A stretch of 64,000 nt of DNA from Lentisphaeria bacterium (GCA_017541665.1 JAFXYP010000069.1:27945-91944), one strand, 5' to 3'; positions 11,431-64,000 are shown, counted from the stretch's first letter. A program made the numbers and translations. Notes: generated by a model from the letters alone, not told the origin.

Positions 11431-11498
11431 GTCTTGAATCCGTGCCGTCGCGAAGCACGGCACAACCGCAGCGGAGGCCATGCCTCCCCGGGGGGCGC

Positions 11499-12395
11499 AT
11501 GGAAAGGATCCTTCAACATTTCATCGGCTATCTGACGGCCGAACGCGGCCTCGCACGGAATTCCACCGCCGCCTATTCCTCCGACCTCGAAGACTTCGTC
11601 CAATGGCTCCATGCGCAGGGCATCGAGTCGTTCGACGCTGCCGGACGCGACGCCATCATCGACTACCTGGAATACTGCCGCGACGAACGCGGCCTGGAGA
11701 CGGTCAGCATCGCGCGCCGCCTGGTGGCGATCAAGATCCTCTACCGGTACCTTTTCCGCGAACGCCTGATCGCCGCGGATGTCACGGACGTGATGGATTC
11801 GCCGAAATTCTGGCGCATCCTGCCGGATTTCCTGAACGTTGCCGAAGTCGATGCCCTGCTCAACGCTTACCCCGTGAAATCGCAGGACCCGCTCGTCATC
11901 CGCAACCGCTGCATCCTGGAGCTGCTGTATTCCTGCGGGCTTCGCGTCAGCGAATGCGTGAACCTCCGGTTCGGCTCCGTCCGGTTCGACGAATGCACCA
12001 TCCGCGTGCTCGGCAAGGGCTCCAAGGAACGCATCGTGCCGATGGGCGACGCCGCGATCCGCCAGCTGAAACGCTATCTGGAGAAAGCCCGGCCGGAACT
12101 CGCCGGCGACGGTGCCGCGCCACAGCTCTTCCTCTCCAACCACGGTCGCAAGCTCGACCGCGAACGCGTCTGGATGGTCGTGAAAGAGGCCGCCCGCATC
12201 GCCGGGATCGCCAAGAACATCCATCCCCACACGCTCCGCCATTCCTTCGCCAGCCATCTGCTCGAAAACGGCGCCGACCTGCGCGTGATCCAGGAGATGC
12301 TCGGACACGCCGACATCAGCACCACACAGATTTACACGCACGTCGACGAGAACCGCCTGCTCGGCGTCTTCAATAAATTCCATCCGAGAGCCTGA
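11499..12395 (+). CDS. xerD: Tyrosine recombinase XerD
   Basis: ERGLARNS-AY--DL N-terminus; LY-CGLRVSE; GKGSKERIVP; HPHTLRHSFASHLLENGADLRVIQEMLGHADISTTQIYTHV. Confidence 0.88.
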   Translation: MERILQHFIGYLTAERGLARNSTAAYSSDLEDFVQWLHAQGIESFDAAGRDAIIDYLEYCRDERGLETVSIARRLVAIKILYRYLFRERLIAADVTDVMDSPKFWRILPDFLNVAEVDALLNAYPVKSQDPLVIRNRCILELLYSCGLRVSECVNLRFGSVRFDECTIRVLGKGSKERIVPMGDAAIRQLKRYLEKARPELAGDGAAPQLFLSNHGRKLDRERVWMVVKEAARIAGIAKNIHPHTLRHSFASHLLENGADLRVIQEMLGHADISTTQIYTHVDENRLLGVFNKFHPRA

Positions 12396-49667: not shown

Positions 49668-52600
49668 ATGTCTCACAAGTACTCTTGGACCGTTACATCG
49701 AACTACCACTACGATGCAACCCTGACCACGGCCCTGATAAAGGATTACCTCGCCGATTGGCTGGATTCCAGCGGCAAAGATAACCACTTTTACAGTTTGT
49801 CCAACATGGGCAATCTCTCTATCTGGCCCTCCGACCGGGAGAAGCAGCACGACACCAGTTACCACTATGAGGAGGAATCGGAGGAACCGCTGGATCCGGT
49901 GCCCACCAACTCGACTTACGAGTACTACGAGAACTTCAAGCTGGCCACGGGTTTGAACTTCGCCGAATTGCGGAGCTCCGCGGCCGCGGCCGGATTGGCC
50001 TCGCACGGCTACATCCCGAACGGACTCGGGCTCGCCGACAACACCTCAGCCGGGAATATCACCTTCGACAAGAATGGCGAGATCGAATTCGCGGGCAGCA
50101 ACACGCTTGCCCAAGATATCACCTTCATCGACGGCGGCTACGTCTATTTCCAGCCGGGACCGGGCGCTGGTTCGGGGAATCAGACCCTGACCGGATTGCT
50201 CGCCTCCAGGGATTTGGACAGCGTCTTCATTGCCAAGGTCGCCCGGGGCGGAAGCGTCACCCTATCCGGCGGCCAGGTCCGGCGGAATCTGCGGGAATTG
50301 TCCATCGCCGAAGAATACAACGGCTGGACTCCGGTGAGCAGCCAGACCGGTTCCGGCGTGCTCGTTGACGGCCTCGTGGTCCGCGGCGTGCTCAACAGCG
50401 TGTATGTGGGCAGCGGCGCGAGTGTGAACCACCTGACCGTCGGGCTCGACAGACAATGGTCCGGAAGCGACGTCAGCGCGTTCGTCACGACCGACAGCAA
50501 CGGTGTTCCCAAGCCGACATATTGGGGTTCCCATACCAATATGACCATCGCTTCGGGCGGCACCGCCACCAATATCACCCTCGGCAACGGCGGAACCGTG
50601 TACGTCTCCGGCCTGTCGGACACCGTGACCAGCGAGTGGGTCGTCACCGGTACCAGCGGCGGCAGCATGGTAGGCGACGGCTACTGGAAATACACCACGG
50701 CGTATGCCTCCGGCACGGGCGGCATCCTGAAGGACCTGAACATGGCGTCCAGCGGCGGCCTTCAGTTCGAGGGGATCACCGATCCCCGTGCGACCTGGAA
50801 CTATCCGTCGAACGGTTATCTCAACAGCCGCTCCTACATGAGCGGCTTCCTCGCGACCGCGCCGCAGAGCTCGTATGTCTCGTTCGGAAGCAACGCCAGC
50901 GGCAGCAATATCAACATCGGCAAAGGCGGCTCGCTCTATATCGACAAGGGCGCGAGAGTCAGCGCCATCTCCATGGGCGGACTCACCACCAGCACCACGT
51001 TCGTCAACAGCAGCGGCACCACCGACACGTGGATCGGGGACCGGGGCGCGAGCTTGCAGATCAGAGGCGGCTATGTCTCCGGCGTGGTGATGGACCCCGT
51101 CCTGCAGACCTTCGATTATTATTCCGCCGCGCATGATTATTTCTGGCTTCACTCTGAGACCATCAAGGACGCCTATTCCTCGGCGCACGGCAGTTACGGC
51201 TCCGGCGAGGCGTGGTCCTCCGCCATGTATGCTTCCGCCTCGGCCACCTACCGTCAGTATATGAGCGCCATGTACACTTCCGGCGCCGTCTATACGAACC
51301 TCGGCGACGACACGGCCTACAACCGCAGGTACGTCGGCGGCGACATCGGCGTGGCCGGCGGATGGATCATGAACGTCAGCGGATTCTCCTATCTCGGCGT
51401 CGCGGCGGATGTGGATGTGACGGTCTCGAACAACGTCAGCACCTGGAAGACGTACCAGTATACGGACGGCAACGTCTCCAAGGCCATCGGCGCCGTGAGC
51501 GCGACGCTGGATGTGACGGGCGGCGCCCATGTCTACAACGTGAAGATCGAAGGCGGCCGCGTCATCATGACCGGAGGGGGCGAAGTCAACGCCCGCTGGC
51601 ACAGCAGGGAAAACAAGCAGAGCAACTACAACCTGGTGGAAGACCTGGACCTGCGGATCGGCGATGTGCTGGGGCTCGGCAGCGCTTACCCCGCGGTCAT
51701 CGAGTTCTTCGGCGAGGGCAGCGGCGGCTACAAACAGTATATCTCCTCCGGCGGCACCAGCGGTTATGTGGATTACACCTGGGACGCGATCGATCCGGGC
51801 GAGATCCACTCGGTCACCGCCAGCAAAGGCCTGGTCGTTTCCGCCAACTGGACGACCCATCAGGACTTCACCTACATCGGCAGCGGCGCGGTCACCTTCA
51901 ACGGCCTCGGCACCGTCGTGCTGAAGGACAACCATTCGCGCTACTCGTCCGATTCCTACTACGGCACGGGGCCCTATCTCGGCTCGGCGTTCGACGAGTA
52001 TTATTTCGGCGTGGTGAAGGGTGTGTACAACGAGGAAGACGGCGTGCTGGAAAACTACACCGTCCTCGACGGGGACGTCAGCAGCGGCGGCTTCGACTGG
52101 GAGGGTTTCCTGATGGTCGGGTCCGGCGGCATCGTGCAGAACATCGGCTCCGCCTCGCCCCTGAAGACCGGCAACGACATCGTCAACAGCGACACCTGGA
52201 CGCCCGAATACACCCGCGACAAATGCAAGGTCCTGACCGTGGTGGCGGGCGGTTCCGCCAATAACGTGACGGTGAAGGGCGCGGTCAGCAACTTCGAGCA
52301 TTATGAATCGCAGTACACGGAAAGCCGCGCGGGCCTGCTGGTCTCCTCCGGCGGCACGGCGACGAACGTGACGGTCCTGGAAGGCGGCATCGCCATGGCG
52401 AAGGGCGGCACGATCGACAAGGTGTTCGTCGCCGCGGGCGGCGTGCTGTATCTCTCCGGCTGGGCGGGTGCGCATCAGGTGGGAGAGAGAGACAGCGATT
52501 ACAATCTCCAGCTGTCGGGTCCGCAGTACATGGACACCACCGTGCTGAACGGCGTGCGTCTGGATTCCGGCGGACAGCTGACCAATACGCTGGACTGGGG

Positions 52601-55600
52601 ATTCCGAGCCGGTAATGCACCGAGCGTCATCGCCAACAAGGGCGGCGGCATCATGAACGGCGTGACCGCCAACGGCGTGGCGTATGTGAGCGGCCTCGAC
52701 TACGCGGGCGGCATCACGCTGACCAAGGATCAGCAGGCCATCGACGTGACCGTCCGCGGCTATAAAACGATCACTTCGCGCGACGAGGAAGGCAATCCGA
52801 CGGCCTATACCACAACGATTGCCAGCCTGAACGTGAGTTCCGGCGGCATCGTGAAGGGCGCGACCGTCGGAGACGAAGGCGCCATCTACGTGAGCAACGG
52901 CGCGGACGTGAGCGGCCTCGTTGCCTCCGGCGGACGGATCGTCTTCGCCAACAGTTCCGGCTGGAGCGACTACTTTGCCGGCAGCGCGACCGTGAACGGG
53001 ATCACCGTCAAGGACGGCGGAGCGCTGGAAGTCAACAGCAAGTTCGGCCTCACCGCGACCGACGTGAAAATCGAGCAGGACGCCGGTCTGACGTTCACGC
53101 TCGGGAAGGCCGCAAACGAGGATTACACGCCGACCGCCCTGAACGGGACCTGGACGGCGGACTGGGGCTCCGGCACGTTCCAGACGAACGACGGTGTGCT
53201 GACGGGCTTCGGCGGCCAGTTCGGCCATGAATACCGCGATCTCTTCTATTCCAGCGCCTACGTCTCCGCGCGCCTCTCCATGACGATCGTCGAGGGCGGC
53301 GTGCTGGCAGGCGGCGATCTGCGCGGCTACGGCAGCGTCCTCGTGAAAAACGGCGGCAAGATGCTTGACACCAAACTTCAGGGCATTACGGCGAATATCG
53401 CCACGAGCGGCTACGCGTCCGGACTATCCGCGACCGTCGCCAGCGGCAAAAACGCCTACGGCACAAATATCTATGTTTACGGCAGCGGCGCGGTCGCGGA
53501 AGCGACGGTCCTCAACGGGGGCTATATGGGCGTCGAGAGGGGCGGCGTGGTCAACTCCGTCACGATGCTCTGTCCCGAAGGGTACGAAGGCCCTGCGGGC
53601 AACGACACCCAAGTCGGCCCCGTTGAATTTGAGGTCATGGCGGGCGGCACGGCGAACAACGTGATTGCCAGCGCGGGCGTCATCACTCTGCTGGACGGCT
53701 CCAAGGAACCGGGTACGGCCGGCCCGACCCTGTCGAACGCCGACGTCCATTCCGCCGCGATGCTCATCGTCAAGGGCGACGGCGCGGTGCTGGACGGCAC
53801 GCTGAACCTCGCGGGCACAGTCTTTACGACCGGCAAGCGCTATGAATACGTCGAAGTGGAGGTGACGGACCCGAATACGGGCGATACCTATACCGACTAC
53901 CAGCGCGTCGAGTTGAACAACTCCGTCGCGGACGCCGCGACGCTGACCGTGAACTTCGACCTGACCGAACTCGAAGCGCCCGGCGAAACCGCCATGATCG
54001 ACAACCTCGCCAATCTCACTGGCGTGAAGTTGGACAAGATCTCCGTCAGCGCCGACCAGACGCAGGGCGCATACGTACTCGCTGGCGGTTCCGAGGATTA
54101 CAACGGCGCGCTGAAAGTGGTTCGCGACGGCTCGTTTGCCGGGACTATCACCGTGGGCGGATACCTGCAGGTGACCGACGACCTGACCTACAGCCTGCTC
54201 AAAAACGACAACAACGATCTCGTTTTCTCCGTGATGTCGACCGACGCGGCGATCACCAATATCGTCGCCACGTCGGACGGCAAGGAACTGCTTAAGGGCA
54301 AATGGTCCAAGTATGCCGTCAACATCAAGACGGAAGTCAACCAGTATTCCAAGTCCATCTGGTACCGCATCAAGCAGGCGGTCAAGCCCAGGACCAGAGG
54401 GACCCTCCTCTATGCACCCGGCGACGTGGATGACGACGGCTGGATTGAACTTGACAACGAAAAAGGCATCACGCTCTCGGAATATTGCACGGTCGAGTTC
54501 AAGGCAAAAAACGAGAAAGGCGCGGATTCCAAGATCGTCGAGTACATCGTGAACTACGACGCGACCGCGCCGGTGATCGACGGCCTCCGCCTCGTTTCGG
54601 GCGAACCCTTCCTGACGCCCGGTGTGGAATCCGCAGTCGTCGTGTCCGTGACGGACGATCTGGACGCCACTCCGGCGCTTCAGCTCAGTCTGAACGACGG
54701 CATGTGGACGGACGTTATCCATAACGACGATGGAAGCTATATCTTCAACCTCACCGGCGGCATAGAAGGATTCACGCTGCGCGCCATCGACCACGCCGAG
54801 AACGAGACCGTGCTCAGCGTGTCCGTCCCGAACGATCCGGTTGCGGCGGCAGACATCGTCACTGTCACCAATCAGGACGTCACGGTCAGCGCGGAGTTCA
54901 GCGCCGACGCGATGATAAAAGAGTTCTCGACGGACGGCGGCGAGACCTGGGAAGATTACGACGAGGCTGGTGTGGTGCTCGATAACAACGGCACCGTGTC
55001 GTTCCGCGCCGGAAACATCCTCGGATACTCTGCCGTGACCGACCTCGTCGTCGACAACATCGACAAGGATGCACCTGTGATTACGCTTGCCGGCGACAAT
55101 CAGACCCCGTTGCAGTCCAGTACGTTAACGGCGGAGGTCGATGATGACAGCGAAATTCTCTTCTCGCTTGACCAGCAGACTTGGAAAAAGTATGAAGGAC
55201 AGCTTGATGTTGCTGCGAATGGTACCTATTACTTCAAAGCGACTGATGCTGCAGACAACGTCGGTACGGCGGAATACGTATTTGCCAACATCCGGCCGAT
55301 CTTGTCTTCGGAAGTCGAACCTCAGACACAAACTTGGGAAAAGAGCGGGGAAGTCTCGCAATACATTGTGGAGATTTCCACGGACAATTTCGAGCATGTC
55401 ATCCAGCTGGTCGTTGAGTCCAATTCGCTTGATGCCTTCCAGATGCCTGCAGGCAACTACCAGATTCGCGTCAAACCTGAGGACGGAGAATGGGCTGCCG
55501 TCGATCCTGTGGCTGGCACACCGGCCGCCACCGAACCGAAGATCATCAAGTCGGATGCGGACGGCAATGCGGACGTGTTCTTCGCGAGTGCTATAGGAAC

Positions 55601-56378
55601 ATGGGGATACAGGTATCAGGCGCAACATGTCGGGTCTGTCGGCGATTTGTCCGGGACGCAGGAATATGCCGCGCTCTCCGGAAAAAACAAGCTCACGGAC
55701 ATCATCGAAGGCTCGACCGATGCCAATATCCTGCTGATGACCGATGATTTTAATGGTGACGCGCTCTTCGTGGACGACATCTATTCGGCTCTGCCGGGTT
55801 CCATTTCGGAACAGCTGTCGCGCATTGTCCAAATCAATGAAATCCGTGCCGGCGCCGGCAGCGACATCATTGATATGACCAGCCAGCGGTTCCTATATGT
55901 CGGTGACGGCCTCACGATCCGCGGTGGCGACGGCGACGACGTGATCTGGGCGAACAAGGGCGACAACTTCCTTTTCGGCGACGCCGGGGACGATCGCATC
56001 GTCGGAGCATCCGGCAATGATGTGATCGCGGGCGGCATCGGCAACGATTCCATGCACGGCGGCGGCGGAAACGACGTCTTCGCCTTCTGCGACAACTGGG
56101 GAACTGATGAAGTCGAACAGCTCGCTGGTGGTTCCGTTACACTGTGGTTTACATCGGAAATGGAAGGCAAGGTGGCATGGGATGATCTTTCCGAGTCTTA
56201 CACGGACGGTGATAACAGCGTCACCGTTAAGGGGGGCACCTCGGTCGAGCTCAAGTTCGGCGGCGTCGGAGAAGATGCGGCCATGTTTGCTACGTTGTCT
56301 GAAGCAGGGGCATTCAAAGAATTCACCTCGCAAAAGATATTCGAGGAATCCGGCCAGGGGTTCCTTGCCGGCTTGTAA
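49668..56378 (+). CDS. 2236-aa surface protein/adhesin with AIDA-like beta-helix repeats, Ig-like domains and C-terminal RTX Ca-binding repeats
   Basis: Repeated V-SGG-A--VTV--GG units; NIDK-AP / YD-TAP linkers; GGDGDD, GDAGDD, GGIGND, GGGGND nonapeptides; GGAGGAG RBS; no Sec signal. Confidence 0.8.
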   Translation: MSHKYSWTVTSNYHYDATLTTALIKDYLADWLDSSGKDNHFYSLSNMGNLSIWPSDREKQHDTSYHYEEESEEPLDPVPTNSTYEYYENFKLATGLNFAELRSSAAAAGLASHGYIPNGLGLADNTSAGNITFDKNGEIEFAGSNTLAQDITFIDGGYVYFQPGPGAGSGNQTLTGLLASRDLDSVFIAKVARGGSVTLSGGQVRRNLRELSIAEEYNGWTPVSSQTGSGVLVDGLVVRGVLNSVYVGSGASVNHLTVGLDRQWSGSDVSAFVTTDSNGVPKPTYWGSHTNMTIASGGTATNITLGNGGTVYVSGLSDTVTSEWVVTGTSGGSMVGDGYWKYTTAYASGTGGILKDLNMASSGGLQFEGITDPRATWNYPSNGYLNSRSYMSGFLATAPQSSYVSFGSNASGSNINIGKGGSLYIDKGARVSAISMGGLTTSTTFVNSSGTTDTWIGDRGASLQIRGGYVSGVVMDPVLQTFDYYSAAHDYFWLHSETIKDAYSSAHGSYGSGEAWSSAMYASASATYRQYMSAMYTSGAVYTNLGDDTAYNRRYVGGDIGVAGGWIMNVSGFSYLGVAADVDVTVSNNVSTWKTYQYTDGNVSKAIGAVSATLDVTGGAHVYNVKIEGGRVIMTGGGEVNARWHSRENKQSNYNLVEDLDLRIGDVLGLGSAYPAVIEFFGEGSGGYKQYISSGGTSGYVDYTWDAIDPGEIHSVTASKGLVVSANWTTHQDFTYIGSGAVTFNGLGTVVLKDNHSRYSSDSYYGTGPYLGSAFDEYYFGVVKGVYNEEDGVLENYTVLDGDVSSGGFDWEGFLMVGSGGIVQNIGSASPLKTGNDIVNSDTWTPEYTRDKCKVLTVVAGGSANNVTVKGAVSNFEHYESQYTESRAGLLVSSGGTATNVTVLEGGIAMAKGGTIDKVFVAAGGVLYLSGWAGAHQVGERDSDYNLQLSGPQYMDTTVLNGVRLDSGGQLTNTLDWGFRAGNAPSVIANKGGGIMNGVTANGVAYVSGLDYAGGITLTKDQQAIDVTVRGYKTITSRDEEGNPTAYTTTIASLNVSSGGIVKGATVGDEGAIYVSNGADVSGLVASGGRIVFANSSGWSDYFAGSATVNGITVKDGGALEVNSKFGLTATDVKIEQDAGLTFTLGKAANEDYTPTALNGTWTADWGSGTFQTNDGVLTGFGGQFGHEYRDLFYSSAYVSARLSMTIVEGGVLAGGDLRGYGSVLVKNGGKMLDTKLQGITANIATSGYASGLSATVASGKNAYGTNIYVYGSGAVAEATVLNGGYMGVERGGVVNSVTMLCPEGYEGPAGNDTQVGPVEFEVMAGGTANNVIASAGVITLLDGSKEPGTAGPTLSNADVHSAAMLIVKGDGAVLDGTLNLAGTVFTTGKRYEYVEVEVTDPNTGDTYTDYQRVELNNSVADAATLTVNFDLTELEAPGETAMIDNLANLTGVKLDKISVSADQTQGAYVLAGGSEDYNGALKVVRDGSFAGTITVGGYLQVTDDLTYSLLKNDNNDLVFSVMSTDAAITNIVATSDGKELLKGKWSKYAVNIKTEVNQYSKSIWYRIKQAVKPRTRGTLLYAPGDVDDDGWIELDNEKGITLSEYCTVEFKAKNEKGADSKIVEYIVNYDATAPVIDGLRLVSGEPFLTPGVESAVVVSVTDDLDATPALQLSLNDGMWTDVIHNDDGSYIFNLTGGIEGFTLRAIDHAENETVLSVSVPNDPVAAADIVTVTNQDVTVSAEFSADAMIKEFSTDGGETWEDYDEAGVVLDNNGTVSFRAGNILGYSAVTDLVVDNIDKDAPVITLAGDNQTPLQSSTLTAEVDDDSEILFSLDQQTWKKYEGQLDVAANGTYYFKATDAADNVGTAEYVFANIRPILSSEVEPQTQTWEKSGEVSQYIVEISTDNFEHVIQLVVESNSLDAFQMPAGNYQIRVKPEDGEWAAVDPVAGTPAATEPKIIKSDADGNADVFFASAIGTWGYRYQAQHVGSVGDLSGTQEYAALSGKNKLTDIIEGSTDANILLMTDDFNGDALFVDDIYSALPGSISEQLSRIVQINEIRAGAGSDIIDMTSQRFLYVGDGLTIRGGDGDDVIWANKGDNFLFGDAGDDRIVGASGNDVIAGGIGNDSMHGGGGNDVFAFCDNWGTDEVEQLAGGSVTLWFTSEMEGKVAWDDLSESYTDGDNSVTVKGGTSVELKFGGVGEDAAMFATLSEAGAFKEFTSQKIFEESGQGFLAGL

Positions 56379-56644: not shown

Positions 56645-57919
56645 TCATCTTTTCAGATAAGTCCTGAATTCCGGCAACATCTGGTCTGCGATATCATCGG
56701 GGACACCGGCCTCCCTGGCAAAGTCGCCAAACGCCAGCGCCGCCTCGCATACCGTATGGATGATCTCCTGCGGCTTGGAAATGTCAAAGTGCTTTGCCAC
56801 GGCGAGGAAGTCCCTGGCGCTGAAGCCATCGCGTTTCCCGTTGATGGACATCTGGTGCTGCCCCGTCCATTTCGAGCCGGGCTTATAGGCCCATGCCATA
56901 TCGTAGGCGGGCGCAAGATGCCAGACGCCATTCCGCGTCATGAGGAACGATATGTTTTTGGTGTGGTCGTCGTGATTGCGGACAACAGCATTGAAGACCA
57001 TTCGGCGGAACAGCTGGGCTTTTTCGGAGGGAAGCAGTTTCAGCTTCTCCATCGTGTCGAAAGCCTGCTCATAGGAATTCGCCACGGGATTGTTGTAATC
57101 CATGTGCCGCATGGCGCAGAGGGTCTGGATATGAAGTTTTTCCCCGTTCAGCCTGTCAAAACGCTTCGACATGAAGTGGGCGCAATCGTGGTCCTCCAGC
57201 AGACGGCATTCGCTCATCCGGATCCCGGCTGCCTTCGCCATGAGGTAATAGGCATACTCAATGCGACCGTAGGACTTCCCGTCTTTCCGCACATCGAATT
57301 TCAGCAGCCAGTAATCGCATCCGTCCGGAGCTTCGACCTGACCGGAATATACTTCGTTTGTCTCGGAATTCCACGCGATTACGGCTTTGGGACGCGCACC
57401 GCCTGCCGACGATCCGACTTGCAGAATATCGTGGAAGGCTGATTTCTTATCATCCTGAGAAACCTTGAACGATTCCCGTTTCCGCATGATCTCCGCGGCC
57501 AGCTGCGAAAGCGCGTTGACATTGAGTTTCTGCGATTTCCTCACCCGCGACAGCGCCGGCTTGAATTCCAATGCGCCCATGCCCCGTTTCCCGATGTAGC
57601 AGAGCTTTTCAACCGGATCGAACGAGTTTTCAGGACGTCCCTGCGCCCGCAGGAAGGCGTTGATGACCGCATTGCCGAAATAATCCGGCAGCGAGTCGGC
57701 CAGCAATCCGGGCAACCCCTGAAACGTTTCCTCGGAAAGCCTCGGAAAACTGTAGATCTGCTGTCCGGAGATCGGCATCATCAATGGAGCAAGTTCCAGA
57801 TTCTGTTTTTTGAACTTGTCGTCATATTCGAAAAAGGCGACATGAAGCGCCGAATCCCACCCGACTGTCCCGACGAGTGTATCCCAGATAAAAACATTTG
57901 CAAGTGTGGTTATGCTCAT
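56645..57919 (-). CDS. hipA: HipA-family toxin kinase
   Basis: DSLPD-FG, GKRGMGALEF, SAGGARPK, WLLKFD, EYAY, KRFDR, NHDDHTKNISFL, LAPAYD. Confidence 0.92.
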   Translation of the reverse strand: MSITTLANVFIWDTLVGTVGWDSALHVAFFEYDDKFKKQNLELAPLMMPISGQQIYSFPRLSEETFQGLPGLLADSLPDYFGNAVINAFLRAQGRPENSFDPVEKLCYIGKRGMGALEFKPALSRVRKSQKLNVNALSQLAAEIMRKRESFKVSQDDKKSAFHDILQVGSSAGGARPKAVIAWNSETNEVYSGQVEAPDGCDYWLLKFDVRKDGKSYGRIEYAYYLMAKAAGIRMSECRLLEDHDCAHFMSKRFDRLNGEKLHIQTLCAMRHMDYNNPVANSYEQAFDTMEKLKLLPSEKAQLFRRMVFNAVVRNHDDHTKNISFLMTRNGVWHLAPAYDMAWAYKPGSKWTGQHQMSINGKRDGFSARDFLAVAKHFDISKPQEIIHTVCEAALAFGDFAREAGVPDDIADQMLPEFRTYLKR

Positions 57920-58203
57920 GATTTCTTCGTTGCTCTCCGGCGTTCCCTGCCATGAAGTTTAGCCAACTGGATCGGACTGATCGGCGGCAAGGGCAGAAAC
58001 GCATCCAGAGAATCCAGTACGTCAAGTGCGGTCAGAACGCGGATCAGGTTTGCCAGCGTGGACCCCTTGCCGTCTTCCAACCGTGCCACAGAAGCCAAGC
58101 CGATCCCGGCGCGTTCCGCGACCTCTTTCTGGGAGAGATTCCGGTTCAGACGATGCCGTTTGACCCGTTCCCCGATTTCATGTAATGCCTGTTCCGTATT
58201 CAT
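57916..58203 (-). CDS. HipB-like XRE antitoxin
   Basis: RLNRNLSQKEVAERAGI----VARLE-G; 4-nt overlap with hipA; ATG at 58203. Confidence 0.88.
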   Translation of the reverse strand: MNTEQALHEIGERVKRHRLNRNLSQKEVAERAGIGLASVARLEDGKGSTLANLIRVLTALDVLDSLDAFLPLPPISPIQLAKLHGRERRRATKKS

Positions 58204-58226
58204 CGGATCTCCTTTCGATGCCATAC

Positions 58227-58254: not shown

Positions 58255-58374
58255 GCCAACAAATCAAAAATGATTGAAAATAGTAGATTGGAAGCAATAA
58301 TATACTGTTTGTAATGCATTGATGTTTTTTGTTTTTTTGCGTTTTCAAAAGGCTCAATTATATGAGAGAGTGAC

Positions 58375-58403
58375 TTGACTTTTCCCGGAACTTGTGATAA
58401 AGT
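58375..58403 (+). promoter_or_regulatory. Array promoter, copy 1
   Basis: TTGACT-17 nt-TAAAGT with TG extension; near-identical to 61956-61984. Confidence 0.7.
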
Positions 58404-58411
58404 AGAGAAAC

Positions 58412-58439
58412 TAAGCAGACTTATTCCGACGCCACGGAG
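58412..58439 (+). repeat. Array boundary repeat 1 (core + right arm, degenerate)
   Basis: TAAGCAGACTTATTCCGACGCCACGGAG. Confidence 0.7.
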
Positions 58440-58561
58440 GATATAACATGAAATACAAAACGGTCAGTACCATCGCCGCGATCCTCTGTCCACTGGCGAC
58501 ACAATACCGGCGAACGGAAAAACGTTATAATAAGAAACAACAACACACAGGGGGTCCCGAT

Positions 58562-59674
58562 ATGAAAACGAAAGCGATTCGCAACATTTTTTTCGCCGTC
58601 ATCGCGGTCTTCCTGACCGCCGCAGCGTTCACCGGATGCGAACAGGCCGAGAAGGCCAGAGCCGGGTCCATCAGGACTGACGAACAAAGCCGGATCGATG
58701 CTTCGGAATTCGACCTTAGGATCACGGTGACGGACACGGACGGCAAGCCTTTGGACGGCGTCACGATGGAGCTGGAATTGAAACGTCCGAAGCTCCCCCT
58801 GCTCAGCGGCGAATGGGAATCCCAAAGAGAGAAGGAGAAAACAGTCAAATCAAAAATCCATATTCAGGAAAAAGGCTGGACGAAAATTGATCTTCGTTTT
58901 CGGAAAGACGGTTATCATTTGGAACAACGCAGTTTCTCCATCAACATCATGAATGAAGACAAAGCCAATCTGTTTGTGAAACGGGATCTCCAGGTCAAAA
59001 TGTCCAAGCAGATGTCTCTTGCTTCTTTGTTCGGGGGTGGCGGTGTATTGTCATATAATATTGAGAATGGTAAAAGAGAGATCCTTGATATCGATATTTT
59101 CCCCAAAAAAGCAGGAAAGGAGACTACTGATCTGAAAAAGAAAGAAGAAATGAAGAGCGAGGAAGACGAAGAGAATGAGGAAGACGAGGATATCGAGGAT
59201 GAAATAATCAAGGATCCCCATATTATTTCAATCGATTCAAAGGCCAAGCCGGCAACCGTAAAATATATGGAAATTGACTTCAGGAGAGATAAGGACGGCA
59301 GCATTGTCTATGATACGGCCGATACGAAAGGGGTTGCCAAACCGACCTCATGTATTGTTCGATTCTGCTCCGACGATCCTGGTGATGGATTGCTGTTTGT
59401 TTCCAAAGTGGAGTCCCCGAAAAGTTGGGAAGCCGAAAAAGAACTTACAACCGCCCCGGAGAAAGGTTATAAAAAAGAAATTGCAATTGACCTTGGAGAA
59501 AAGAATAAAAAATTCTACGTGTTTTGTTATATAAAACAAGGTGACCATTACGGAAAAGCAAGGCTTGGGCCGGTGTATATTCAGGAAGAAAAGAATAAGA
59601 TCCAGCTTGTCAAAATGAATGTAAGAGTTTCATTCAACACGCTGGAAGGCGACCGGAACGTGAATACCTTTTAA
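58562..59674 (+). CDS. Lipoprotein of unknown function
   Basis: MKTKAIRNIFFAVIAVFLTAAAFTGC lipobox; VTD-DGKPLDGV (carboxypeptidase-regulatory-like beta fold); an in-frame upstream ATG at 58448 is a remnant of another gene's start. Confidence 0.72.
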   Translation: MKTKAIRNIFFAVIAVFLTAAAFTGCEQAEKARAGSIRTDEQSRIDASEFDLRITVTDTDGKPLDGVTMELELKRPKLPLLSGEWESQREKEKTVKSKIHIQEKGWTKIDLRFRKDGYHLEQRSFSINIMNEDKANLFVKRDLQVKMSKQMSLASLFGGGGVLSYNIENGKREILDIDIFPKKAGKETTDLKKKEEMKSEEDEENEEDEDIEDEIIKDPHIISIDSKAKPATVKYMEIDFRRDKDGSIVYDTADTKGVAKPTSCIVRFCSDDPGDGLLFVSKVESPKSWEAEKELTTAPEKGYKKEIAIDLGEKNKKFYVFCYIKQGDHYGKARLGPVYIQEEKNKIQLVKMNVRVSFNTLEGDRNVNTF

Positions 59675-59683
59675 TGAACAGGA

Positions 59684-59716
59684 CACCCCCAGCCGACTAA
59701 CCCCGACACCACGGAG
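59684..59716 (+). repeat. Array boundary repeat 2
   Basis: CACCCCCAGCCGACTAACCCCGACACCACGGAG. Confidence 0.9.
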
Positions 59717-59728
59717 TGAAACATTGAT

Positions 59729-60217
59729 ATGGAACTTGACATAAAAACGAAAACGGCCTGGATTCTGGCGGGCAGGATCGCGCTCGGCGCGGTCTGCGTG
59801 CTGGTCACGGTCCTGTCGCTGTCCCGGCTGGGAAGCGACGAGTGGAGGACGCTTTGGGAATGGCTGTCCACCATTGCCCGCAGAAGTCCGCTGGGCTTTG
59901 CGATCTTTGTGGCGGGAGTCGTCAACCTCTTCCTCCTCTTCGGGCTCTATTTGTGGGGGGACAAGCGCACGCGGCGGGTCCTGCTGCCGATGTGCATCCT
60001 GCTGCCGCTGCATTTGTTTTCTTTCATGCACATCACCTTTCTCTTTCCGATTGTCGACCTGATCCTGCTCTTGGTACCGATCCCCTGCGTGATCGAAGCG
60101 ATCGCCCGGAAAAAACCTCTCCTCGGGATCGCGGCGGCGTTTTGGGCGTTCTACCTTCTCGCAGGGGTATATCTATGCTATGATTTCTGGTCGAAGATCT
60201 CGCACCTTGCCAAATGA
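59729..60217 (+). CDS. Small integral membrane protein
   Basis: 162 aa with 4-5 hydrophobic segments, bounded by repeats; RBS from the repeat. Confidence 0.7.
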   Translation: MELDIKTKTAWILAGRIALGAVCVLVTVLSLSRLGSDEWRTLWEWLSTIARRSPLGFAIFVAGVVNLFLLFGLYLWGDKRTRRVLLPMCILLPLHLFSFMHITFLFPIVDLILLLVPIPCVIEAIARKKPLLGIAAAFWAFYLLAGVYLCYDFWSKISHLAK

Positions 60218-60220
60218 TTC

Positions 60221-60259
60221 CCTCACCACCCCCAGCCGACGAACCCCGACACCACGGAG
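60221..60259 (+). repeat. Array boundary repeat 3 (full length)
   Basis: CCTCACCACCCCCAGCCGACGAACCCCGACACCACGGAG. Confidence 0.9.
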
Positions 60260-60267
60260 AATATAAC

Positions 60268-61356
60268 ATGAAAAAGAAAACTGTTTGGATCACCGCCGCG
60301 ATCATCGGTTTGGGCGCGCTCGCAGTCGTCCTTGCGCTGGCGTTCACGCATTGGAACAAAGACGGGAAAAAGGAACGGAGAACGGTGCCGCAATACACGC
60401 TGGAGGAGCTGGAGAATGCGGACATAACGGCGACCGAGGCAACGAACGCCGACAGTAATGAATCGGCGGGCACAACGCTGAACAATGACCAATGGGAAGA
60501 ACTGGCCGAATCCCTCTTTCAGGAAATTCGTTTTTGGTCATCGCATGATAACAAAAGTAAAACGGAAGCCAGACTTAGCACATATGACCGTATTGAGCTC
60601 TGGCGCAAAGAACATAAACTCGAAAAAGATGATATAACGAAGATTTTTGTCAAAACAATTCAAGATTATTTTTTGGAAGTGGAAAAGAAATCGGAAAATA
60701 AAAAACTTATGATGTGGCATCGTTATGCTATCTCCCTTCTCCATTATTATCCGCCGCCTCAAAAACAGTTCATGGAATTGGTTCAGAAAACCGCCGAATT
60801 GGAACCGGATTATGTTGAAATGGTCATTTATGGGTATATAAACGCATACCCTGATTGGATTTTTGATGATAAACCGATTCTTGAAATAATAAATAAAACC
60901 GACTCAACCACATACAGACTTAGTGGCGTATGTTTTGATCTAACAAAACAAATTCTGAAAGAAAAGGATGAGAATCGCAGGAAGAGGCTTCTTCACAAGG
61001 CGCTCGAATGGGCTTTTCAGGATGACAAGCTTGAAATATTTCATGATTTAGATAGAATTTTACTTGATCACTGCGAAGACTACGCAGCGCATCCCGGCCG
61101 AAAGCTCCAGCTGGAAAAGGATTTAAAGCAACGTGAGGAAGCCAGGAAATATACCTTGAGTTACCTCAGGAGCAAATATGCTCTGGAGCATTTCGGCGAG
61201 GGAGATGAAGCGCTTGAAGTGTTATACAAGTTGGATATGGATGACAAAGTAAAAAGTCGTATATTAGAGAAAATGAATGAGATAAAGAAAGCTGGAAAAG
61301 ATCCATCGGCTATTTATACCAAAGAGTTTTTCGATGAACTGAACAACGTAAAATAA
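60268..61356 (+). CDS. Membrane-anchored/exported helical protein, paralog A
   Basis: N-terminal hydrophobic helix; body clearly homologous to 62029-63156. Confidence 0.8.
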   Translation: MKKKTVWITAAIIGLGALAVVLALAFTHWNKDGKKERRTVPQYTLEELENADITATEATNADSNESAGTTLNNDQWEELAESLFQEIRFWSSHDNKSKTEARLSTYDRIELWRKEHKLEKDDITKIFVKTIQDYFLEVEKKSENKKLMMWHRYAISLLHYYPPPQKQFMELVQKTAELEPDYVEMVIYGYINAYPDWIFDDKPILEIINKTDSTTYRLSGVCFDLTKQILKEKDENRRKRLLHKALEWAFQDDKLEIFHDLDRILLDHCEDYAAHPGRKLQLEKDLKQREEARKYTLSYLRSKYALEHFGEGDEALEVLYKLDMDDKVKSRILEKMNEIKKAGKDPSAIYTKEFFDELNNVK

Positions 61357-61361
61357 GCCGA

Positions 61362-61391
61362 CCTCACCACCCCCAGCAGAGTAACCCCGAC
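61362..61391 (+). repeat. Array boundary repeat 4
   Basis: CCTCACCACCCCCAGCAGAGTAACCCCGAC. Confidence 0.85.
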
Positions 61392-61438
61392 CGACACATC
61401 GAACCGAAACACAACGAGAATAAGGAACAATTACAATC

Positions 61439-61810
61439 ATGAAATGGTTCGTCATCCTGTATCTTCCTATTCTGTGCATCTCGGTTTTCATCTTTCTCCG
61501 GGCATTGTTCCGATTCATCAAAGTGAAAGAGTTTTTTGGGAACACGCTTCCTGACAACGAAAAGGAATGTATCAACGGGTTTCCCAACTGCTTCCCGAGA
61601 CATCCGATTTCGGACTATTATAAGGAACACCCTTTGCCTTGGACCAAGGAGACTGTGGACGGGCTTCTGAAACGCAATGAAATCCTTTTGAAATACGACA
61701 AGGAGAAAGCGAAACAGCTGATTCTTGCGGAAAAACAATTGTTTTATTCCTTGAATACCGCGGTCATTGCGACGGGGATATTCGCTTTGCTGTTTTTTGT
61801 GGTGAAATAG
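61439..61810 (+). CDS. Small two-TM membrane protein
   Basis: Hydrophobic N- and C-terminal helices; TAAGGA RBS; bounded by repeats. Confidence 0.7.
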   Translation: MKWFVILYLPILCISVFIFLRALFRFIKVKEFFGNTLPDNEKECINGFPNCFPRHPISDYYKEHPLPWTKETVDGLLKRNEILLKYDKEKAKQLILAEKQLFYSLNTAVIATGIFALLFFVVK

Positions 61811-61819
61811 CCATCTGTT

Positions 61820-61886
61820 CCCCCCCAGCCGACTAACCCCGAATCCAATCGTCCTTCCTGCTCGTCCGCCGACTTCCTGCCCGGAG
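61820..61886 (+). repeat. Array boundary repeat 5 (left arm + core) plus 37-nt terminal tail
   Basis: CCCCCCCAGCCGACTAACCCCGA then CGTCCTTCCTGCTCGTCCGCCGACTTCCTGCCCGGAG. Confidence 0.85.
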
Positions 61887-61955
61887 CCTGCCGGACAGGG
61901 GTGCCCGGCGGTGTCCTGGTTTTGGCGGAAAGTATTAATATATTTAGGGCGGGAC

Positions 61956-61984
61956 TTGACTTTTCCCGGAATAGGTGATAAAGT
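61956..61984 (+). promoter_or_regulatory. Array promoter, copy 2
   Basis: TTGACT-17 nt-TAAAGT with TG extension. Confidence 0.7.
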
Positions 61985-61992
61985 AGAGTTAT

Positions 61993-62020
61993 TAAGCCGA
62001 CTAACCCCCACTCCACGGAG
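61993..62020 (+). repeat. Array boundary repeat 6 (core + right arm)
   Basis: TAAGCCGACTAACCCCCACTCCACGGAG. Confidence 0.85.
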
Positions 62021-62028
62021 AACTTACC

Positions 62029-63156
62029 ATGAAATACAAAACGGTCAGCACCATCGCCGCGATCCTCTGCGGCGGCTTCCTCTCGTTTATTCCGGCATTC
62101 GCGCAGGAGAACACGGATGGAAAAACGGAACAAGACAAGACCTCGCAAATGCAGCCGCATTACACGCTGGAGGAGCTGAAGAATGCTGAAATAACGGCGA
62201 CCGGGGCAACGAACGCCGATAACAATGGATCGTCAGGCACTTCGCTGAACAATGACCAGATGGAAGAATTGACAGAATCACTCTTTCGGGCGATTCGATT
62301 TTGGTCATCACTTGATGACATGTCTTATGAAAAAGCAAGACTTAGCACTTATGATCGTGTTGAACTCTGGCGCAAAGAACATAAACTCGAAAAAGATGAT
62401 ATGACGAATATTTTCGCCAAAACAATTCAAGATTATTTTTTGGACCTGGAAAAGAAAACAGAAAATAAAAAACTCAAGACTTGGCATTCTTATGCTTTGT
62501 CTTATATCAATTATTATCCGCTTCCTCAAAAGGAGTTTATGGAATTGATACAAAAGACTTTTCAATTGGAACCAGAGAGTGTTAAAAAGATTATTTTCGG
62601 ATATATAAGCGCGTATCCGGATTGGGTTTTTGATGACAAACCGATTATTGAAATAATATATAAAACGGACTCAAAAACAAACAGACTTTTCAGAGTGTGC
62701 GCTGATTTAATAGACCAAATTCGTAAAGAAAAGAATGTGGTTCGTAAAAAGAAGCTTCTTGATAAGGCTTTCGAATGGGCTTTTCAGGATGACAAGCTTG
62801 ACATCTTCTGTTTTTTAGACAGAACTTTGCTTGACCACTACGATAAGGAGTATGCAACACATCCTGGACGAAAGCTCCAACTGGAAAAGGATTTGAAGCG
62901 TTATGAGGAAGCCAAGAATTACGACTGGGTTTACCGCCGGACGAAATATGCTCTGGAGCATTTCGGCGAGGGAGACGATGCGTTTGAAATGTTATACAAG
63001 ATGGATACGGATCCCAAATTGCAAGATGGTGAATGGGATCGTTCTGAGCGTAAAAGACGCTCAAGAGAGCATATAGAAGAGATGAAGAAGGCGGGAAAAG
63101 ACCCCAGGTCTGTTTATTCCAAAAGGTATCTTGACGAACTATACAGCGATGAATAA
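62029..63156 (+). CDS. Secreted helical protein, paralog B
   Basis: Sec signal ending AFA-QE; body homologous to 60268-61356. Confidence 0.8.
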   Translation: MKYKTVSTIAAILCGGFLSFIPAFAQENTDGKTEQDKTSQMQPHYTLEELKNAEITATGATNADNNGSSGTSLNNDQMEELTESLFRAIRFWSSLDDMSYEKARLSTYDRVELWRKEHKLEKDDMTNIFAKTIQDYFLDLEKKTENKKLKTWHSYALSYINYYPLPQKEFMELIQKTFQLEPESVKKIIFGYISAYPDWVFDDKPIIEIIYKTDSKTNRLFRVCADLIDQIRKEKNVVRKKKLLDKAFEWAFQDDKLDIFCFLDRTLLDHYDKEYATHPGRKLQLEKDLKRYEEAKNYDWVYRRTKYALEHFGEGDDAFEMLYKMDTDPKLQDGEWDRSERKRRSREHIEEMKKAGKDPRSVYSKRYLDELYSDE

Positions 63157-63162
63157 ACATCC

Positions 63163-63231
63163 CCTCACCACCCCCGGCCGACTAACCCTCAGCGCGTCCT
63201 TTCTGCTCAACCGCTGACTTCCTGCCCGGAG
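63163..63231 (+). repeat. Array boundary repeat 7 (left arm + core) plus 37-nt terminal tail
   Basis: CCTCACCACCCCCGGCCGACTAACCC then CGTCCTTTCTGCTCAACCGCTGACTTCCTGCCCGGAG. Confidence 0.85.
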
Positions 63232-63264
63232 ACGGCCGGCCTCGTTCTTGCCTGCGTCAGCGAA

Positions 63265-63465
63265 TTGTTTATTGTCGTTTCCGTGGTCGTGTTATTGACG
63301 ACGACAGGGTTCGGACCCCGTCAATCCGAACTCTCCGCGGAGGAGCTCGCGAAGCGCATGGAAGCGGCGGAAAATGGCGATGCCGAAGCGCAATGTCTTC
63401 TGGCCGATGCCTATTTCCTCGGGAACGGGATGGAGCAGGACCACGACGGGTTCCATGTGGTGTAG
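63265..63465 (+). pseudogene. Truncated Sel1-repeat protein fragment
   Basis: AAENGDAEAQCLLADAYFLGNGMEQD is one Sel1-like repeat followed by an early stop; no good start. Confidence 0.55.
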
Positions 63466-63567: not shown

Positions 63568-64000
63568 ATGAACAATGAAACAACACAAAAAGAAACGAAA
63601 TCGTCAAAATCATTATTTGTACTCATGGTGTTGATACTTTTTGGAACAATCCTTAACCTGGCGGGATGCAGTTCCGTAGACGGGGGAAGCAGAGTGCGAG
63701 TTTCCGACTTCAAAGTCAAGCGGGGAACAAACCTCAGCCACTGGTTTTCACAAACTCCCGTGCGAGGGGCTGCACGTGCAGCCAGAGTAAAGGAAGATGA
63801 TTTCATCCGCCTGAAAGAATTTGGATTTGACCATGTCAGAATCCCGATTGATGAAGAACAATTCTGGGACGACAACGGGAACAAACTGACGGATGCCTGG
63901 GAACTGCTGGATGCATCCATCAAGCTCGCACTCAAGCATGAACTGCGCGTAATCGTGGATTTGCATATCATCCGCAGTTTTTATTTCAATGCATCCATCG
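63568..64000 (+). CDS. GH5 glycoside hydrolase lipoprotein (partial, runs off window)
   Basis: TAAGGAG RBS; LAGC lipobox; RGTNLSHWFSQ, GFDHVRIPIDE, LRVIVDLH. Confidence 0.85.
   Translation, partial: MNNETTQKETKSSKSLFVLMVLILFGTILNLAGCSSVDGGSRVRVSDFKVKRGTNLSHWFSQTPVRGAARAARVKEDDFIRLKEFGFDHVRIPIDEEQFWDDNGNKLTDAWELLDASIKLALKHELRVIVDLHIIRSFYFNASI

Follow-up and report, generated by a model that had tools for sequence, protein, structure and literature searches.

A linker of about 35 nt marks every gene boundary of an array near the end of a 64,000-nt stretch of DNA (the window) from a Lentisphaeria bacterium, where it recurs as six clear copies and one decayed copy bounding five co-oriented genes, A to E. 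The window is contig C18 of genome G000, a rumen Lentisphaeria/Victivallales metagenome-assembled genome (MAG) of 2.6 Mb and 77% completeness. Across the genus, arrays bearing this linker follow one modular grammar, single genes are gained, lost and reordered at the linker, no recombinase gene was found on the array contigs checked, and the interval in which crossover took place differs from event to event. General recombination between linker copies is the most likely agent of this shuffling.

The region 58375-63240 was read directly and searched with patterns for the three parts of the repeat. The core (AGCCGACTAACCCC) is exact at 59691, 61827 and 61995, has one mismatch at 60234 and two at 61375 and 63176, and when up to three mismatches are allowed the sole additional match in the window, at 6027, looks like chance. 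The left arm (CCTCACCACCCCC) is exact at 60221, 61362 and 63163, a count reached by 0 of 100 shuffled sequences, while the right arm (GACACCACGGAG) is found at 59705 and 60248 with no mismatch, at 58428 with one and at 62009 with two. The seven copies counted in the first-pass annotation therefore comprise six clear ones and the copy at 58412, in which 4 of the 14 core positions differ by hand count but which is still homologous, as 58372-58488 aligns with 61953-62069 at 85% identity over 117 nt. This 117-nt repeat spans promoter, core, right arm and the first 14 codons, and the repeat unit is longer than first described, since homology continues past the ATG into ∼14 codons (MKYKTVSTIAAILC) at both 58448 and 62029. 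GGAG is located 7-9 nt ahead of each ATG, in agreement with the earlier proposal that the right arm supplies the ribosome-binding site (RBS).

The linker has the composition CCTCACCACCCCC-AGCCGACTAACCCC-GACACCAC and is C-rich (∼60% C, 9% G, hand count) and unstructured. Its full left arm-core-right arm (L-core-R) form has a same-strand, mirror-like layout, CACCAC-CCCC-AGCCGACTAA-CCCC-GA-CACCAC, in which the two CACCAC blocks are direct and not inverted repeats. No hairpin was detected on either strand of two sites (minimum free energy −1.5 to −2.7 kcal/mol, z −0.8 to +0.2), the motif contains neither RYYYAAC/GTTRRRY boxes nor inverted recombinase-binding arms around a short spacer, and it matches no Rfam family. 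The motif is hence neither an attC nor a dif site, as had been concluded before.

Promoter-like sites of the type TTGACT-17-TAAAGT are situated at 58375 and 61956, directly 5′ of core and right arm, and the two terminal copies have a common tail (61822-61894 and 63171-63239, 79% identity), which has the heptamer GCCGACT in common with the core. The sites are thus asymmetric by position, as first described, and the locus is read as two operons, P-A-B-C-D-tail and P-E-tail, where P is the promoter module. All five genes encode proteins with signal peptides or transmembrane segments, and none matches a Pfam family above threshold (gene B has a sub-threshold holin-like match), so the earlier view of them as exported or membrane proteins of no assigned function stands. 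The array has a G+C content of 41-49%, compared with 52-64% upstream.

The features of both operons are on the + strand. Operon 1 begins with P1 (58375..58403), a TG-extended TTGACT-17-TAAAGT module that is 85% identical to P2 within the 117-nt repeat, followed by site 1 (58412..58439), the decayed core and RBS-bearing right arm recognized by pattern search and self-alignment. A fragment of the shared signal-peptide start (58448..58489) is fused 5′ of gene A and precedes ldr2 (58499..58561), a second leader type of the A family with a TATAAT-like box that is also present on contig C25 of G000. The long open reading frame (ORF) of gene A, 408 aa from 58448, accordingly consists of the shared start, an in-frame stretch matching ldr2 and a lipoprotein-type signal peptide at 58562, from which internal start the predicted lipoprotein has 370 aa (58562..59674), and the same fusion of signal-peptide fragment to ldr2 is found in genomes G001 and G013. 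Site 2 (59684..59716, partial left arm, core and right arm) separates A from gene B (59729..60217), which encodes a 162-aa multi-pass membrane protein, returned only unnamed clusters in an Atlas query and is a cassette absent from contig L089. Site 3 (60221..60259) is a full L-core-R copy in front of gene C (60268..61356), an exported all-alpha protein and a paralog of E (63% aa identity). In its core a T>G change at 60241 (GACTAA>GACGAA), found at no other site seen, abolishes the TAA stop of the motif, so that a reading frame opened by an ATG at 60214 can continue across the linker into gene C (380-aa ORF, 60214-61356). Site 4 (61362..61438) combines the left arm, a core variant (AGCAGAGTAACCCC) and a second, longer leader class that travels with gene D (61439..61810, 123 aa, hydrophobic segments at the N- and C-terminus), and operon 1 ends at site 5 (61820..61910), a partial left arm and core followed by a tail with a CCTG.CCGG/CCGG.CAGG hairpin. 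Operon 2 consists of P2 (61956..61984), site 6 (61995..62020, core and right arm), gene E (62029..63156) and site 7 (63163..63239, left arm and core, then tail). Gene E, alone in its operon here and an internal cassette in G013 and contig L093, encodes an exported protein predicted to be an armadillo (ARM)-like alpha-solenoid; its AlphaFold2 model is an alpha-solenoid (pLDDT 79) for which Foldseek against the PDB gave nothing at E ≤ 0.001 and a weak armadillo-repeat resemblance only. The C/E family has 95 homologs, all unnamed and with no precomputed Pfam domain.

The linker is specific to one lineage. Exact matches to the motif were found in ten stretches, of which eight are from rumen MAGs (five Lentisphaeria/Victivallales and three "uncultured bacterium") and two are single matches in unrelated taxa that look like chance. 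Within G000, left arm plus core with up to six mismatches gave seven matches, five in the array and one each on contigs C22 and C58, and the reversed control gave 0. Among the 15 other genomes of the genus, 10 contain a 19-nt pattern of the motif, compared with none of 45 genomes from outside the genus, and a sequence-only model built from 25 copies has 42 matches in 12 of the 16 genus genomes, with 1-10 in each of these and eight, at three loci, in G000. The genomes lacking the motif are the two most divergent (G006 and G007) or incomplete (G002, 69%; G015, 88%). Such low copy numbers and confinement to the genus indicate a low-copy, lineage-specific motif and, together with the absence of a palindrome, led to rejection of a dispersed element of the repetitive extragenic palindrome or bacterial interspersed mosaic element (REP/BIME) type; the genome-wide scattering for which the first-pass annotation had allowed is not seen.

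Over the loci of the genus and 25 metagenome contigs the grammar tail-P-core-R-gene-(L-core-R-gene)n-L-core-tail recurs. Among 68 unique sites conservation extends over approximately positions −13 to +20, counted from the first position of the core, and is lower over RBS and ATG, with the score of the core itself inflated because the core, and not its flanks, served as the search key. The module of right arm, ATG and signal-peptide start is present at nine places in G000 (81-91% identical), before paralogs of A and other exported proteins, and the mature parts encoded behind it are either unrelated or have 24-41% identity. D-type genes have a second leader class (core + GACACCAC + ACATCCAACCGAAACACAAC…) and A-type genes a third, ldr2. 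The point at which the tail joins is the end of the core itself, or else lies behind core+GACACCC or behind core+GACACCACCACAC. The earlier statement that the motif marks every gene boundary is correct for all boundaries of the window array, but in relatives some cassette junctions are without it. The products of the cassettes include BspA-type LRR, ankyrin, Sel1 and T2SS-G-like domain proteins, members of the C/E family and small membrane proteins, and the Pfam scans by which they were assessed matched LRR_5, Ank, Sel1 and T2SSG and no immunity family.

Evidence that the units behave as cassettes was provided by comparing arrays, for which all data are from MAGs and metagenome contigs. A total of 33 core-to-core segments were typed into 23 cassette types (≥88% identity over ≥80% of the length), leaving out L084, which is identical to G012:C30, and noting that the boundary at L076:2780 is probably a chance core. 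Seven types were seen repeatedly, of which six occur in two or more neighbor contexts, and cassettes with 90-99% identity to one another are differently ordered among relatives and contigs of rumen metagenomes. For example, E occupies the whole interval from P to tail in the window, is internal in G013 and in L093 lies between a 198-aa gene and D, while a 625-aa gene that has an internal position in G013 directly follows P in L075/L078 (98.5% identical). Gene B follows A in the window, precedes an A-like gene in G010 (98.7% identical) and follows an E-like gene in G004. Three single-cassette insertions or deletions (indels) were identified, and all three end in the repeat. Gene B is present between A and C in G000 and absent in L089 (flanks 97.3% and 98.1%, the two alignments having 33 nt in common at the motif); L075 has a 416-aa gene that G013 lacks (flanks 98.5% and 97.8%, overlap 89 nt); and E is present in L093 and absent in L082, with a left flank of 98.7% and a right side that, over the 160 nt compared, is identical from the left arm onward. 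Parts of the linker travel with particular genes, as the core variant AGCAGAG accompanies a downstream D cassette behind three different upstream cassettes and the left-arm variant CCTCGCC stays with an upstream K2 cassette in two contexts. Genes are also mosaic inside their coding regions.

Cassettes are unusually alike between species, given that backbone identity to G000 is 65-91% in other members of the genus (77-84% in long syntenic stretches), although misbinned short MAG contigs could mimic a high inter-species identity. Three arrangements (L075/L078, L092/L099 and G012:C30/L084) were each seen again, 100% identical, in an assembly of separate name, which is evidence against chimeric assembly. 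The first-pass annotation had described the units as cassettes of a repeat-delimited array and had looked to strain comparison for breaks inside the core; gain, loss and changes of order at the repeat were indeed found, but the breaks are not confined to the core and one is inside a coding region.

Neither a tyrosine (PF00589) nor a serine (PF00239) recombinase is encoded on the nine array contigs checked in five genomes; the nearest such genes are 46, 79 and 135 kb away. The closest of these, at ∼11480-12376 (+) and 46 kb upstream of the window array, is an Xer-like tyrosine recombinase (PF00589, 172 bits) that is conserved across the genus (80-91% nt identity), is not linked to arrays in other genomes and is probably a housekeeping gene. 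A Pfam scan of 71 ORFs flanking eight arrays showed no recombinase, and Y1 transposases (PF01797) were found only as fragments on other contigs. No Y2 transposase (PF04986) was found, but this search carries little weight as 14 control genomes were also without a match. One flank, that of L092, is phage-like, with RusA, AAA_24 and a PDDEXK domain. The earlier observation that no dedicated recombinase lies beside the array thus extends to the array contigs checked in its relatives. An unoccupied promoter-core-tail allele, expected if cassettes were inserted into such a target, was not seen at any of 19 promoter modules, as in no case did a tail follow in the next 200 nt.

Crossover took place in a different interval in each of the three indels. 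For gene B the exchange is bounded by core position 8 and the right-arm end, placed by one single-nucleotide polymorphism (SNP) that may be private to G000, and for gene E the interval comprises the left arm and the core as far as position 3. The best resolved is that of the 416-aa gene, for which a SNP in the core, three SNPs in the spacer and the left arm are informative. In G013 the junction matches K2|K15 in left arm, core and RBS spacer but carries the K6 coding body, which places the exchange outside the core, past the ATG and before the shared signal-peptide stretch ends. Crossovers that vary over the whole shared module are as expected of general recombination or slippage and not of a fixed-site recombinase. 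Together with the lack of a linked recombinase, the 0 of 19 empty targets and tail junctions at three or more positions, this speaks against the dedicated site-specific system that had been proposed for the locus.

We therefore favor, with a confidence only somewhat above even, an explanation in which a conserved operon linker gives general recombination portable homology and so diversifies a secreted-protein repertoire. In a single rumen genus of Victivallales, the linker connects successive cistrons within operons that run from promoter to tail, are low in G+C and have as predicted products secreted and membrane proteins (BspA-type LRR, ankyrin, Sel1 and ARM-like solenoids as well as small membrane proteins). 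As the linker often runs into RBS, ATG and ∼14 signal-peptide codons, 30-90 nt of near-identical DNA is available at many boundaries, and RecA-type exchange, gene conversion or direct-repeat slippage between copies could delete, duplicate or swap the intervening genes. The outcome would be strain-specific orders and sets of cassettes, in which any cassette may stand first after the promoter, internally or last before the tail. The linker itself would be kept for a role in expression, as RBS context and possibly as a C-rich, G-poor stretch like a Rho utilization (rut) site for the loading of Rho, which would terminate transcription after the last cistron, and selection would favor a varied secreted repertoire. 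The search for intrinsic terminators at the tails detected none, which fits a factor-dependent stop, and a rut-like or other operon-level role would explain why the linker is retained.

Several observations weigh against this explanation. The C-run, core and GACACC of the 68 sites are better conserved than RBS and ATG, the core is retained at terminal sites that have no downstream gene, and the same linker flanks at least eight unrelated gene families. Recombination of linkers that are already in place leaves unexplained how a new gene becomes inserted between a pair of them, and some exchanges involve homology of only ∼16-33 nt. Two of the three crossover intervals depend on single SNPs, the identity of 90-98.7% between cassettes of different species points to efficient transfer, and the roles of the linker in expression are proposals drawn from its sequence.

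Some of the same observations would be accommodated if the motif were mainly an RNA-level operon element, with shuffling an incidental by-product. This is rather unlikely but is the strongest of the alternatives, the candidates being rut-like loading of Rho, an anti-termination or processing site, or a binding site for a translational regulator. An unstructured 35-nt element of such C-rich, G-poor composition that begins at about the predicted transcript start after P, lies 10-20 nt before each RBS, recurs after the last cistron where no intrinsic terminator was found and has its conservation peak outside the RBS is consistent with a function in RNA. Rut sites, however, are defined by composition and not by near-invariant sequence, and an RNA-level element does not by itself account for reordering.

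An analogue of an integron is improbable, more so than an RNA-level element. Here, a recombinase encoded elsewhere would recognize the 35-nt, asymmetric and hairpin-free L-core-R site, excise cassettes as circles, insert them at core-bearing sites behind a promoter and so move single-gene secreted-protein cassettes between promoter-driven operons and between species of the genus. The core is the sole element common to P-core-R, L-core-R and L-core-tail sites, and the association of AGCAGAG with a downstream D and of CCTCGCC with an upstream K2 fits exchange near the border of left arm and core. Unrelated promoterless genes flanked by a single kind of site, cassettes far more alike between species than the backbone, the low G+C content of the array and exchanges on very short homology are likewise in keeping with such a system. 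It is opposed by the absence of a recombinase near any array checked, a site with neither inverted arms nor hairpin, the lack of an empty promoter-core-tail site at the 19 promoter modules, a well-resolved crossover in a coding region, tail junctions that vary in position and cassette junctions that have no site.

Less probable still is that the shuffling is an artefact of chimeric assembly joins or misbinned contigs and that the locus is a static family of tandem paralogs. Most of the evidence does come from MAGs and short metagenome contigs, and arrays are often at contig ends (G010:C31 is just 2,959 nt), but exact identity between copies does not exceed ∼60 nt, which is below read length, three arrangements recur in separate assemblies as noted above, and the differing arrangements are internally consistent over more than 40 contigs. 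An origin of the motif as a relic of the 3′ coding end (SPPPAD*) of a gene family since deleted, already disfavored, is hardly credible, for although the reading frames of two G013 genes run on through the left arm to the core TAA (…PPSPPPAD and …PSPPPAD), the stop codons of all five window genes are upstream of the core, the motif also begins transcripts directly after promoters, and its right arm is an RBS.

The surroundings of the array vary. Directly upstream and divergent is a hipA gene (HipA_C + Couple_hipA) with a helix-turn-helix, hipB-like partner (56645-58206, −), and in G014:C21 a YafQ/RelB pair flanks the array. The hipBA orthologs of G014 and G004 (85-86%) do not adjoin arrays, and homology to relatives ends at 58280 and restarts at 63658, so conserved synteny at the locus was rejected. 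The restart is abrupt and falls inside a downstream gene for a glycoside hydrolase family 5 (GH5) cellulase (in the region 63658-64000), which is 94-97% identical in seven other genomes of the genus compared with 77-91% for the backbone. Sel1-repeat genes on the opposite strand repeatedly flank arrays (L067, L078 and L060), and a Sel1-like fragment (63265-63465) follows that of the window. Farther upstream are a 2236-aa protein (49668-56378, +) with C-terminal RTX calcium-binding repeats and no other Pfam family, and a polysaccharide-biosynthesis cluster (14250-37132) with genes for nucleotidyl transferase, glycosyltransferases, pyruvyl transferase, polysaccharide deacetylase and FabH/FabG-like proteins.

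Tail and P were also considered as genome-wide elements and rejected. A two-mismatch scan of the genome gave 21 tail and 12 P matches, among which inspection left four real tails, and P resembles a general promoter type (TTGACTTTTCCCGGAA…TATATT) found at ∼5 other loci. These ∼5 other G000 promoters, on C20, C36, C71 and C73, have TTGA(C/T)TTTTCC(C/G)GGAA followed by a TATATT-like −10, and their TTCC-N-GGAA half-palindrome block may be a general or a regulon-specific promoter feature of the organism.

The locus indicates that an uncultured rumen lineage can develop integron-like population behavior, namely the gain, loss and reordering of single genes and what looks like their exchange among species, around a short operon linker of conserved sequence that has no neighboring integrase. 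If general recombination suffices, a conserved linker would be a simple route to diversify a repertoire of secreted proteins, and would also be a hotspot at which MAG assemblies break up. Should a recombinase encoded elsewhere act on it, this would be a new class of cassette system. The eukaryote-like interaction domains predicted in the products (LRR, ankyrin, Sel1 and ARM-like) suggest variable surface or effector functions in the rumen. A full-text literature search retrieved no paper combining Victivallales with the term gene cassette.

In integrons, attC is an imperfect palindrome that folds as a single-strand hairpin and is bounded by RYYYAAC/GTTRRRY. Like integrons, the arrays described here consist of co-oriented, mostly promoterless single-gene units behind one promoter, with a repeat at their junctions at which units are gained, lost and reordered, and with a composition unlike that of the host backbone. 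Unlike integrons, the window locus has no nearby intI, and its repeat is conserved in sequence, asymmetric and free of palindrome or hairpin, includes the RBS and sometimes coding sequence, and has no fixed crossover point. The system is therefore integron-like at the population level yet fails on intI, attC and fixed crossover. The pdif modules of Acinetobacter plasmids are discrete gene modules bounded by short Xer sites, with recombinases encoded elsewhere, but pdif sites have inverted XerC and XerD arms and the window motif does not. In the "upstream homology box" lipoprotein families of Borrelia, divergent surface-protein genes share an upstream region and leader and recombine. The conserved upstream and signal-peptide start on divergent exported-protein genes is the same here as in such a shared-leader multigene family. 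The Borrelia genes, however, are dispersed on plasmids or prophages, each with its own promoter, whereas the window has operon-internal linkers that bound cassettes on both sides. The minimal mobile elements of Neisseria are described as gene content between conserved flanks that is swapped by homologous recombination with no dedicated recombinase (PMC3787668); the flanks in that description are whole conserved genes, and here they are a 30-90 nt linker within one array. The rAID-1 arrays of Bacteroidales, as their authors describe them, have a 5′ XerD-like recombinase and small immunity genes (10.1101/471110), while the window arrays, of another phylum, are without a recombinase and encode larger secreted repeat proteins. 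Compared by description and not by motif, rAID-1 arrays are nonetheless the closest resemblance, as they are low in G+C and co-directional, with repetitive intergenic sequences reminiscent of integrons, a structure that their authors call suggestive of active gene acquisition (10.1101/471110).

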